The position numbers and the translations under genes were made by a program. From Escherichia phage JY01, in sequence record OR995200.1: 64,000 bases of DNA. The stretch is one strand, 5' to 3'. Numbering within the stretch: the stretch's first letter is position 1; every line of letters begins with the position of its first letter. Shown here piece after piece: positions 34,187 to 35,441 of the stretch. The notes beneath the pieces were generated by a model. The model saw only the letters and a program-made list of their open reading frames with translations. It made no database searches and was not told the origin of the DNA.

Positions 34187-34205
<19 letters not shown>

Positions 34206-34675
34206 TCAGTGATAAAATTATTTAAATTTTGAGTATATTTCTTTTCATCAAAAATCTTTTGCTGCCTACGTAACCGCCATGGCATTTCAATGAACACGCA
34301 CCATATTCCTGATAGTACTGCTGCTGTAAAAATATTAACAAGTATAATTAAAAGAATCCAATCTTCCGTTCTGCCTACTGGACTTTCTCCAAAGAAGCAA
34401 AATACAAATGATGTCACAGGAAAACTAATAATATACCACAGAATAACCTTCTTATCTGTGAACCAATCAGCGTTCGTTAACTTAGCGCGACCATTATGAA
34501 TACACACGAATTTATCATCTGTTATAATAGATGGCTTAGCTGCTTGATATCCCATTCTAAACTCCCTAATCAACAAATTTTTCATATCTTCAGAACAACC
34601 ATTCCAGTCAACTCTATCAACTGAAATGCCATCATCCCCATCATCTAAATCATACCAGCGAGTTTTTAAAATCAT
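34187..34675 (-). CDS. Hypothetical membrane protein, paralogue family member 1
   Basis: 162-aa ORF with TM segments and C-terminus …[11 protein letters not shown]. Confidence 0.5.
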
Positions 34676-35046
34676 TTAATTTTCCTACAATCACTCACAA
34701 ACTCTTCCATTGATTCTTTTTCAATATAAGACATGTAGCTATTATATTCCTTTAATTGTATTTTGTAATCTTTTTTTCTTTGCCAATTTATTTTAAAATT
34801 ATCATAATGAAAATATAACATGGTACCAAAGAATGAAAATAATGAAATCGCTATAGTATAATGAAGTTCACTCCAAACTTCTATTATATCTATTATACCG
34901 CTGACGTTACTACGGATGTTTAAAATAAGACAGTCAATTAACAATCCAAAAAGACTACCCGCAAGAGCTGCAGCCAACGCTACAGCAAAAATTAAAAATG
35001 ACTCAGGAAGAGAATATTTGACTTTATTTAGTTTTGGCTTTTGCAT
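34672..35046 (-). CDS. Hypothetical membrane protein, paralogue family member 2
   Basis: 124-aa ORF with TM segments and C-terminus …EEFVSDCRKIK. Confidence 0.5.
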   Translation of the reverse strand: MQKPKLNKVKYSLPESFLIFAVALAAALAGSLFGLLIDCLILNIRSNVSGIIDIIEVWSELHYTIAISLFSFFGTMLYFHYDNFKINWQRKKDYKIQLKEYNSYMSYIEKESMEEFVSDCRKIK

Positions 35047-35441
35047 CGTGATTCCTTAACAAATTTCATAATTTCATCAAATTCATGCGCAGCAAGTTTA
35101 AGCTGATGTTCCTTTTTAATCTTTTTACACTGAGCTTTCCAATCACGTACACGTTTACGATAGTGTCTTCCTTGATACCAATATCCTATCCAATTTATAG
35201 GTACTAATAAAAGCGGAACTACCAACGGAAGAATTAGTGTTGCTCCAAATATTGCACCAGATTCAATATCAGTCATAACGTCTATAACCATTCCAGCAAT
35301 CACCAGAATCACAAATGATACAACTACCACAGGACCTATTAACACATCAGTAGAAATTATCTGACGCTTTAATTCATACTTCAACGGTTTACTTGGAAGG
35401 TATAGTGATGGTTTTGACATATTCTCTACATTCCTTAACAA
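35028..35441 (-). CDS. Hypothetical membrane protein, paralogue family member 3
   Basis: 137-aa ORF with TM segments and C-terminus …AQCKKIK…FVKESRCK. Confidence 0.5.
   Translation of the reverse strand: MLRNVENMSKPSLYLPSKPLKYELKRQIISTDVLIGPVVVVSFVILVIAGMVIDVMTDIESGAIFGATLILPLVVPLLLVPINWIGYWYQGRHYRKRVRDWKAQCKKIKKEHQLKLAAHEFDEIMKFVKESRCKSQN

Follow-up and report, generated by a model that had tools for sequence, protein, structure and literature searches.

Why should several consecutive phage genes encode proteins that end in the same few amino acids? The question is raised by a cluster of short overlapping genes on the minus strand of a 64,000-nucleotide stretch of Escherichia phage JY01 (OR995200.1), hereafter the window. 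An initial annotation, made from the letters alone, had read positions 34187-35441 as three tandem small membrane proteins with similar basic C-termini and had taken them for a duplicated family. The 2.4 kb surrounding these genes showed 97-98% identity to the Tequatrovirus phages RB51, wV7 and vB_EcoM-G157lw (more than 500 records matched), and on this sequence evidence the window is that of a T4-like coliphage of the genus Tequatrovirus. By the same comparison, the three open reading frames (ORFs) are the T4 early genes e.2, e.3 and e.4, which are already annotated and functionally uncharacterised. We describe the locus, with a probability of about 0.6, as an early overlapped block, e.5-e.4-e.3-e.2-nudE, in which a conserved peptide tail is overprinted on the Shine-Dalgarno (SD) sequence of the next gene.

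Comparison of the C-termini revealed a tail motif, Φ-x-x-F-[V/I]-x-[E/D]-C-R-[K/E], common to e.5, e.4, e.3 and e.2, with FVKESRCK as the variant in e.4. On the minus strand, its core lies at 35425..35442 in e.5 (F-V-K-E-C-R), 35046..35063 in e.4 (F-V-K-E-S-R), 34684..34701 in e.3 (F-V-S-D-C-R) and 34199..34216 in e.2 (F-I-T-E-C-R). The e.2 and e.3 proteins end in FITECRKLK and EEFVSDCRKIK, respectively, directly before the stop codon (in longer form, SMEEFVSDCRKIK for e.3), while the e.4 tail reads EIMKFVKESRCKSQN and finishes with IMKFVKESRCKSQN. In e.5 the tail reads LLLEKFVKECREYVKTITIPSK to the stop, with the motif, LLEKFVKECREYVK, 11 residues before it. The initial annotation had the first two tails right; the third, given there as KESRCK, aligns better as FVKESRCKSQN, which also runs to the stop. 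It had likewise assigned the motif to the three membrane proteins correctly and had missed it on the non-membrane protein e.5.

The resemblance among the tails is specific to this locus. When all six-frame ORFs of at least 50 amino acids in the window were scanned, the pattern F[VI]x[ED][CS]R occurred five times, and four of the five occurrences were the tails of the adjacent genes e.5, e.4, e.3 and e.2, situated 3-11 residues from the stop. The pattern [ED]CR[KE] was found four times in 129 kb of T4, three times in these same tails. We also took the last 22 residues encoded by each of 108 putative genes of the window and ranked the resulting 5778 pairs by similarity; the e.2/e.3 pair ranked 2nd, e.3/e.5 4th, e.2/e.5 10th and e.4/e.5 21st. 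Taken together, the scans and the ranking rule out chance similarity, and the likeness on which the initial annotation had relied is far beyond chance. Windows of 11 residues around the motif were moderately amphipathic (hydrophobic moment, μH, 0.45-0.69), and Φ, F, V/I and C share a single face.

A further stretch resembling the tail lies inside e.4. Residues 92-101 (35118-35147, minus strand) read DWKAQCKKIK and were aligned by MAFFT to the C-termini of e.2 and e.3 (EFVSDCRKIK); the W and C of this stretch are kept in Mosigvirus e.4 (EWKVQC). The e.4 protein may thus have two tail-like modules, as though an ancestral end had been extended.

The tail codons also carry signals for the gene that follows. 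Start and stop codons overlap at four junctions, by an ATGA of 4 nt at e.3/e.2 and e.2/nudE, by 19 nt at e.4/e.3 and by 32 nt at e.5/e.4; each start overlaps the upstream ORF and has an SD sequence inside it, and ribosome-binding site (RBS) features are annotated in phage 107 too. The overlaps noted in the initial annotation were therefore real and fit the translational coupling that it had suggested; what had escaped it was the SD sequence of the next gene within the tail codons. On the coding strand, the e.2/nudE junction reads TTT ATC ACT GAA TGC AGG AAA TTA AAA TGA, and the R-K codons AGG AAA (34196-34201) form the SD of nudE, with 7 nt from AGGA to the ATG. The e.3/e.2 junction reads TTT GTG AGT GAT TGT AGG AAA ATT AAA TGA, where AGG AAA (34681-34686) is the SD of e.2 and coincides with an RBS annotated in phage 107. 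In the remaining two cases the SD is provided by the K-E codons AAG GAA: at e.4/e.3 (AAA TTT GTT AAG GAA TCA CG-ATG) they lie at 35052-35057 and serve e.3, the e.4 Cys codon after the motif sharing bases with the e.3 ATG (35044-35046), and at e.5/e.4 (AAA TTT GTT AAG GAA TGT AGA GAA T-ATG) they lie at 35431-35436, upstream of the e.4 ATG (35418-35420).

The last two junctions are alike beyond the motif. An exact 16-nt direct repeat, AAATTTGTTAAGGAAT, which encodes K-F-V-K-E plus a T, is present at the e.4/e.3 junction (35051..35066) and at the e.5/e.4 junction (35430..35445), with 100% identity and a spacing of 379 nt, and at both it is followed by ATG-x-AAR-CCA-x-CTA. In nucleotide similarity, junction pairs ranked 14th and 56th of 5778. 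We also analysed polymorphism in 11 Tequatrovirus genomes, a sample kept to these genomes because IMG/VR retrieval yielded only 3 loci. Synonymous diversity (pS) collapsed in the overlapped tails of e.4 and e.5, to 0.03 and 0.00, compared with ~0.18-0.20 in the gene bodies. Overlap itself is common in the window, where 34 of the 90 adjacent minus-strand gene pairs overlap; the motif was found on no other tail.

The initiation region of nudE (34190-34210), GAATGCAGGAAATTAAAATG, is closely similar to the start region of T4 gene 44, GAATGAGGAAATTATG (locus L008, upstream of 31866). The T4 gene 44 start region is a binding site of the RegA translational repressor, and AAATTTGTTAAGGAAT also resembles the RegA consensus obtained by systematic evolution of ligands by exponential enrichment (SELEX), AAAAUUGUUAUGUAA.

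Our first reading of the junctions was that the motif had arisen from the RBS alone. To separate peptide from RBS, the corresponding genes of two further T-even genera were compared. In Mosigvirus PhAPEC2, e.3 (38% identical) ends in NFIKECRK before the stop, encoded by TTT ATT AAG GAA TGT AGA AAA, with an unrelated gene downstream. The other Mosigvirus ends are RFITECRNLR at the stop in e.2, QFIMECREYVK followed by further residues in e.5, and EFVKEIRCKSLNS at the stop in e.4 (CGA changed to AGA). Dhakavirus e.2 (~33% identical) ends in SFIEECRK at the stop, with CGT for Arg, the SD moved to GAG GAA and a different gene downstream. Mosigvirus also has a separate 101-residue protein of the RB69 ORF133c type, with two transmembrane (TM) segments, which ends in NLENFIKECRGK (NFIKECRGK, then the stop), encoded by TTC ATT AAA GAA TGT CGA. 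Its codons TTC, AAA and CGA, compared with TTT, AAG and AGA in e.3, reveal synonymous divergence, and there is no overlap between its stop codon and the start that follows; by eye, promoter- and hairpin-like sequence lies upstream of it. In Dhakavirus NC-G, the gene after e.6, in the e.5 position, encodes a 180-residue soluble protein that BLASTP aligns to e.5 only over LNNFIKECREYAK (9 of 15 residues identical). The codons of its motif, TTT ATT AAA GAA TGT CGT GAA TAC, contain no SD, and the next SD, AAAGAGG, lies 12 nt downstream. The gene that follows encodes a 117-residue 2-TM protein ending in TFIKECKS at the stop.

These comparisons argue strongly against an origin from the RBS alone. 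What stays the same across the sequences compared is a peptide, Φ-x-x-F-[V/I]-x-[E/D]-C-R, with the SD fitted in at varying positions, and the rare AGG codon of Tequatrovirus is, on the same evidence, an RBS layer over a protein-level motif. Because the motif is kept with other codons, before unrelated downstream genes, in ORF133c and in a Dhakavirus soluble protein without SD overlap, the codon comparison shows it to be maintained by peptide-level selection in all three T-even genera, among paralogues as well as on that soluble protein, which outside the motif region cannot be aligned to e.5. A tblastn search of phage genomes gave matches only in Tequatrovirus, Mosigvirus and Dhakavirus, and an exhaustive hidden Markov model search of 1.84 billion representative sequences with a mixed e.2/e.3/e.4 profile returned 9 proteins, all of them e.2, e.3 or e.4 of T-even phages.

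Downstream of e.3, Mosigvirus PhAPEC2 (locus L003, 2857-3651) and Dhakavirus NC-G (locus L020, 864-2105) carry a tandem array of 3-5 small soluble paralogues that is absent from the window. These are of the RB69 ORF139c, 137c and 136c types; most end in W-V-S-S-S-x-x-C at the stop, with variants in two Dhakavirus copies, and TAAGGAA follows each gene at the Mosigvirus array junctions examined. The array makes up another family of this region whose hallmark is a conserved C-terminus, here with Cys as the last residue.

The proteins that carry the tail differ in their relation to the membrane. Kyte-Doolittle analysis identified hydrophobic segments at residues 77-95 and 106-131 of e.2, 31-49 and 57-75 of e.4, and 19-37 of e.3; a weaker second e.3 segment, at ~61-80, did not reach the cutoff of 1.6 and was placed by eye. 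No hydrophobic segment was detected in e.5 by hydropathy. We placed the TM helices at 77-96 and 106-131 in e.2, after an N-terminal soluble domain of ~75 residues and before a cytoplasmic tail, at ~17-41 and ~61-80 in e.3, and at 27-49 and 57-76 in e.4, where a long cytoplasmic helix and a terminal helix follow. Tallies of K/R and D/E showed K/R-rich flanks before TM1 and after TM2 and an acidic connecting loop in e.2, e.3 and e.4. Because of these flanks and this loop, all three are predicted to be two-pass inner-membrane proteins with both termini inside (N-in/C-in) and a cytoplasmic tail, which agrees with the hydrophobic stretches and cytoplasmic tail proposed in the initial annotation; the W followed by a basic cluster that it had described past TM2 was also present in all three. 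RB69 ORF133c shares the predicted topology of two TM segments, N-in/C-in, and a basic cytoplasmic tail. In the AlphaFold2 models of e.2 and e.4, TM2 extends into a long cytoplasmic helix; the e.4 model (mean predicted local distance difference test score, pLDDT, 67.7) has helices at 24-49, 54-108 and 111-128, with the motif on the separate terminal helix 111-128. Sequence searches of the Protein Data Bank with e.5 and e.2 gave no match.

Selection is concentrated in the part of these proteins that bears the motif. Over whole genes, the ratio of nonsynonymous to synonymous polymorphism (pN/pS) was 0.28 for e.2, 0.36 for e.3, 0.36 for e.4, 0.09 for e.5 and 0.12 for nudE. Within e.2, e.3 and e.4, the TM helices and periplasmic loop evolve fast (pN/pS 0.31-0.98), whereas the cytoplasmic juxtamembrane helices are nearly frozen (pN/pS 0.02-0.08; pN 0.005 in the e.2 and e.4 tails). 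Given this difference, the cytoplasmic C-terminal helix would be the functional part, and the hairpin looks like an anchor. The T4 counterparts are expressed: in an omics data set the e.2-e.4 RNAs are classed as early and the proteins are given protein-level temporal classes (PMC9697503 supplement). Together with the pN/pS values of 0.28-0.36, this agrees with the initial annotation in treating the ORFs as coding, and the possibility of non-coding frames that it had raised was not borne out. RNA-level knock-down in T4 had no fitness effect ("Not Fit"), with a prior essentiality of "UNKNOWN" (PMC11879866 supplement); the gene set is dispensable in laboratory infection. No functional study of these genes was found in the literature searched by gene names and motif strings, and no description of the shared tail motif was found in a literature coverage that was incomplete.

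We then asked whether the proteins form one duplicated family, as initially proposed. They belong to separate PHROG families with different precomputed Pfam labels, and pairwise BLASTP among e.2, e.3 and e.4 aligned the tail only. Profile comparison by hhalign gave modest, collinear alignments over the full architecture for e.3-e.4 (P = 1.4e-4), e.2-e.3 (P = 1.7e-4), ORF133c-e.2 (P = 1.1e-4) and ORF133c-e.3 (P = 3e-4); the value for e.2-e.4 was P = 0.16. In a shuffle test confined to single architectural segments, which leaves composition and topology unchanged, e.3-e.4 scored z = 3.1 (z = 2.4 without the last 14 residues), and the e.2-e.3 similarity vanished without the tail (z = -0.3). The e.3 and e.4 proteins also have a common N-terminus, M-[QS]-K-P-x-L...K-x-K-Y, and their upstream junctions can be aligned over ~45 nt; for the 117-residue Dhakavirus protein, an e.3 orthologue, full-length alignments were obtained with e.3 (E = 1e-10) and with e.4 (E = 0.008). 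On this evidence e.3 and e.4 probably arose by an old tandem duplication that predates the split of Tequatrovirus and Mosigvirus, and for e.2 and ORF133c the sharing that the alignments can demonstrate is limited to architecture and the tail module. The idea of a duplicated family thus finds partial support: the predicted 2-TM N-in/C-in architecture and the tail are common to all three, e.3 and e.4 are probably duplicates, and in sequence e.2 is alike in its tail only. Because soluble e.5-type proteins carry the tail too, it is no signature of a membrane-protein family.

Genes of the block have been lost at the junctions and, in some phages, fused. In Yersinia phage ZN18, e.3 is joined straight to nudE with the ATGA overlap intact; e.2 has been lost precisely, and the e.3 tail has become ...CRKLK. 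The joint lies inside a GA(T/A)TG(T/C)AGGAAA repeat, so that a gene-sized deletion between repeated copies, as in PeSL (promoter-early stem-loop) cassettes, is seen here inside the tail/SD repeat. Phage PP01 has the same e.3-nudE arrangement, with the sequence at the joint known for ZN18 only, and several e.3 homologues in the database end in ...CRKLK. About 10% of Tequatrovirus records contain e.3, e.4 and e.5 without a detectable e.2, and e.2 is frameshifted in T4, G9062 and SG1. Phages UFV05 and UFV11 carry an in-frame fusion, e.4(1-31)::e.2(88-162), which joins TM1 to TM1 with deletion of e.3. The repeated tail/SD/start module thus permits gene-sized changes while keeping frames and coupling intact. 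T4 e.2 (locus L009, 18653-18961) is annotated as 102 aa, and its TM2-plus-tail part survives in another frame, a downstream frame of 53 codons; the frameshifted relatives lie at 1660-2147 of locus L015 and 1672-2161 of locus L016. Since T4 e.2 is frameshifted, experiments on it address a truncated protein.

A duplicated gene end was also observed elsewhere in the window. The interval 13349-13624 holds a 58-residue ORF (13366..13542, minus strand), with the gene for endonuclease VII on one side and the pin-like gene (13579..14064) on the other. Its C-terminus, KMIRQYKRLHRMFYNT, is over 16 residues almost identical to that of the adjacent Pin-like protein, QKIRQYKRLHQMFYNT, and no other pair of tails in the window scored higher. 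The ends of the 58-residue ORF and of the pin-like gene are both covered by a direct repeat of 63 nt (83% identity), and in T4 genes 49 and pin are only ~40 nt apart. The 58-residue ORF has the appearance of a further cassette bounded by a duplicated gene end.

How might a shared tail be used? Our tentative answer, held at well below even odds, is that the tail helix mediates docking. The early, overlapped minus-strand block encodes one soluble protein (e.5) and three predicted 2-TM proteins, and their translation would be coupled by the overlaps and roughly stoichiometric. The TM hairpins would act as anchors, and the C-terminal helix would be a common docking or assembly element at the inner membrane face early in infection, by which soluble e.5-type and membrane proteins may bind each other or one shared partner. 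The peptide codons double as the SD of the next gene (AGG+AAA giving AGGAAA, AAG-GAA giving AAGGAA), and the repeated tail-plus-start junctions are sites of in-frame cassette loss. A shared-partner or mutual-assembly role is favoured because each of the three genera has the tail on a soluble protein, even where that protein cannot be aligned to e.5, and on one or more 2-TM proteins. A bolder and still less probable version is that the motif is the portable docking peptide of a new early membrane-associated set of T-even coliphages, made of one soluble subunit and two to four 2-TM anchors; that the members bind one another or a single hub by the same helix, possibly using the invariant Cys, is equally speculative. 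If true, a module of ~25 nt would be a protein interface, a translational coupler and an in-frame recombination site for subunit swapping.

Several points weigh against this reading. The AlphaFold2 models are poor to mediocre (pLDDT 52.6 for e.2 and 67.7 for e.4) and monomeric, and the BFVD fold search gave no cross-family match, the e.4 model matching only its own family. The e.4 Cys is shifted by two positions, a change partly dictated by the overlapping e.3 ATG. The pN/pS values come from just 11 genomes, homology of the e.2 body to e.3 or e.4 was not demonstrable in the segment shuffles, and e.2-e.4 showed no similarity. An obligate, fixed complex of four parts is unlikely, given that T4, G9062 and SG1 have a frameshifted e.2 and that about a tenth of Tequatrovirus records lack the gene.

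The strongest competing accounts deny the peptide a function of its own. If the shared tail were a by-product of overlap, with codons constrained as the SD and initiation region of the next gene, one would expect what the window displays: AGGAAA or AAGGAA in every tail at SD distance from the next ATG, the rare AGG for Arg, suppressed synonymous diversity in the e.4 and e.5 tails and the exact 16-nt repeat at two junctions. Yet the peptide is kept while its codons vary (AGG, AGA, CGA and CGT; TTT and TTC; AAG and AAA) and while the SD shifts within or beyond the motif; the 180-residue Dhakavirus protein has the motif without an SD, ORF133c has it without a start/stop overlap, and the many other overlapping pairs of the window lack it. 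The cross-genus codon comparison largely refutes this account, which we consider improbable. Somewhat less improbable, though still unlikely, is that the tail is a relic of tandem duplication or cassette recombination that copied junctions, since frozen by a dual coding constraint and without a specific peptide function. The sequence common to two junctions (AAATTTGTTAAGGAAT and the ATG-x-AAR-CCA-x-CTA after it, with the 14th and 56th ranks), the precise loss of e.2 at a repeat and the comparable tail duplication beside pin all fit such a history. However, the tails are conserved at 30-50% overall protein identity despite synonymous divergence, and every other part of e.2 and e.4 varies more. 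The motif also persists in positions free of overlap, where a relic would have decayed.

Two further proposals grant the tail or its carriers a function of a different kind. The tail might work as a nascent-chain element: by delaying termination it would let the ribosome begin again at the overlapping start codon downstream. In favour, the motif is under selection at the peptide level and always lies 5-28 nt upstream of the next start, whatever the carrier. However, any C-terminal motif sits near the next start in a tightly packed genome, and the strong constraint covers the whole cytoplasmic helix of 30-55 residues rather than its last residues. To our knowledge the motif resembles no known arrest peptide, and we regard this proposal as marginally less probable even than a by-product of overlap. 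Least probable of all, and very nearly discounted, is a lysis function of the holin or antiholin type for e.2-e.4. In T4, the holin on which lysis depends is T, and its gene, t in the T4 annotation, lies elsewhere. The two TM segments, the N-in/C-in topology and the basic tail are like those of class II holins, and the genes lie two away from the lysozyme gene e; but no holin family was matched in Pfam or PHROGs, the T4 RNAs are early rather than late (PMC9697503 supplement) and knock-down is without fitness effect (PMC11879866 supplement). Docking by the tail helix remains the reading that we prefer to these alternatives.

The gene assignments rest on consistent matches across the block, all on the minus strand. 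RB51 annotates the matching minus-strand ORFs as e.6, e.5, e.4, e.3, e.2, nudE, e (lysozyme) and denV, and the T4 record L13089 gives them the names msp3-msp8, with msp7, msp6, msp5 and msp4 corresponding to e.2, e.3, e.4 and e.5 (UniProt P32273, P32274, P39222 and P39223). The e.2 protein (34187..34675, 162 aa) matched phrog_2203 over residues 1-160 (E = 2.5e-78), and its gene lies immediately upstream of nudE in the synteny of RB51; its 51 homologues, mostly full-length at 81-91% identity, bear the precomputed label PF26896. The e.3 protein (34672..35046, 124 aa) matched phrog_2330 over residues 1-122 (E = 7.5e-63), has homologues at 79-99% identity and is annotated in RB51. For e.4 (35028..35420, 130 aa) the match was phrog_2604 over residues 1-130 (E = 1.8e-69), with 98 homologues, the full-length ones beginning MSKPS; PF26873 is their precomputed label, and the Pfam copy used here did not contain or match it. 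The initial annotation had placed e.2 and e.3 correctly and had found a real third ORF, which it started at a TTG at 35441. That codon is merely the end of the longest ORF; the ATG at 35420 is preferred on account of the annotated homologues, the N-terminus MSKPSL, conserved in Mosigvirus too, and the position of the SD. The soluble e.5 (35389..35997, 202 aa) matched phrog_2607 (E = 1.1e-108). The last gene of the overlapped block, nudE (33750..34190), encodes a Nudix hydrolase (Pfam NUDIX, E = 1.3e-13), and its start, the ATG at 34190, is that annotated in RB51 and phage 107.

The only intergenic structure bordering the e.5-e.4-e.3-e.2-nudE block is a G+C-rich hairpin, GGGGCTTCGGCCCC, at 36016..36036, between e.6 and e.5; it is annotated as a putative stem-loop in T4 L13089 and as a terminator in PhAPEC2 and G9062. 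Upstream of e.6, the best sigma-70-like promoter match (36675..36703, minus strand; 11 of 12 positions, with a TG extension), a consensus match only, is a candidate early promoter for an e.6-to-nudE transcript, and at the corresponding position T4 L13089 has annotated -35 and -10 signals. Past the other end of the block, within 32742-33712, denV directly adjoins the lysozyme gene e; across denV from e, as in RB51, there is an Ip4-like ORF (32259..32732). PADLOC found nothing similar to defence systems, and an Rfam scan of 32.5-38.5 kb gave no match. A PspA/IM30-like identity for e.6 had been a guess from the sequence, without Pfam support, and was rejected, as was a rhodanese or sulfurtransferase identity for e.3 and e.4, which have no such Pfam or NCBIfam match and are 2-TM hairpins plus helices. 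Some e.3 and e.4 homologues are labelled "sulfurtransferase" or "DNA primase" in NCBI records, and some e.6 homologues "host specificity protein"; these names appear to be propagated mis-annotations. Elsewhere on the minus strand, near-identical terminator-like hairpins at 37724-37747 (AGCCCTAGCCGAAAGGTTGGGGCT) and 38283-38306 (AGCCCCGACCGAAAGGTTGGGGCT), each followed by TTTTTGGTAT, bracket a 157-residue ORF (37755..38228). RB51 annotates the homologue of this ORF as "flanked by 34 bp imperfect direct repeat", and the arrangement is that of a PeSL-like cassette.

About half of the T4 genes, e.2-e.5 included, are without a known role, although T4 is the best-studied large phage. A motif on four consecutive proteins, in three genera and even on proteins that cannot otherwise be aligned, is a concrete handle for finding partners, and one short sequence holds three layers of information: a protein motif, the RBS of the next gene and a recombination site. 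Practical consequences are modest: laboratory infection does not require the genes, which occur in T-even coliphages only. The genes were already known; the shared tail and the repeated coding junction modules would be the new element, within the incomplete literature coverage noted above.

How, then, does the block compare with known systems? The closest is T4 itself, whose e.2-e.5 are orthologues at 82-100% protein identity, in the same order between e.6 and nudE and with the same overlaps, and are annotated "conserved hypothetical, predicted membrane protein". The differences are inessential: T4 has an e.2 frameshifted to 102 aa where that of JY01 is intact at 162 aa, and it has ipII and ipIII between denV and e, both of which JY01 lacks. 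With Imm and Sp, the superinfection exclusion proteins of T4, the proteins share being small, early, non-essential membrane proteins of T-even phages, and by this analogy roles of the Imm/Sp type are a plausible functional neighbourhood; however, there is no sequence similarity or family match to either, the tail motif having been checked in T4 by six-frame motif scan only. We know of no tail motif in Imm or Sp. Ordinary coupled genes of the ATGA type, common in T4 and in bacterial operons, likewise overlap stop with start and carry the SD within the upstream ORF, but they encode no conserved peptide common to successive genes, whereas here the same peptide stands on four consecutive proteins. 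Finally, PeSL cassettes account for modular shuffling in hyperplastic regions of T4-type genomes (PMC2839356, PMC4122927). The likeness lies in short repeats that border non-essential genes in a plastic region, where recombination between copies removes or moves whole genes. PeSLs, however, consist of an intergenic promoter and terminator, and no promoter or hairpin was found at the four e-block junctions, where the genes overlap without intergenic DNA. The repeats of the e-block are instead made of a coding C-terminal peptide, an SD and an overlapping start, and exchange between them leaves both reading frames and the translational coupling intact; with this the PeSL concept of shuffled modules is extended beyond intergenic DNA to junctions that encode protein.

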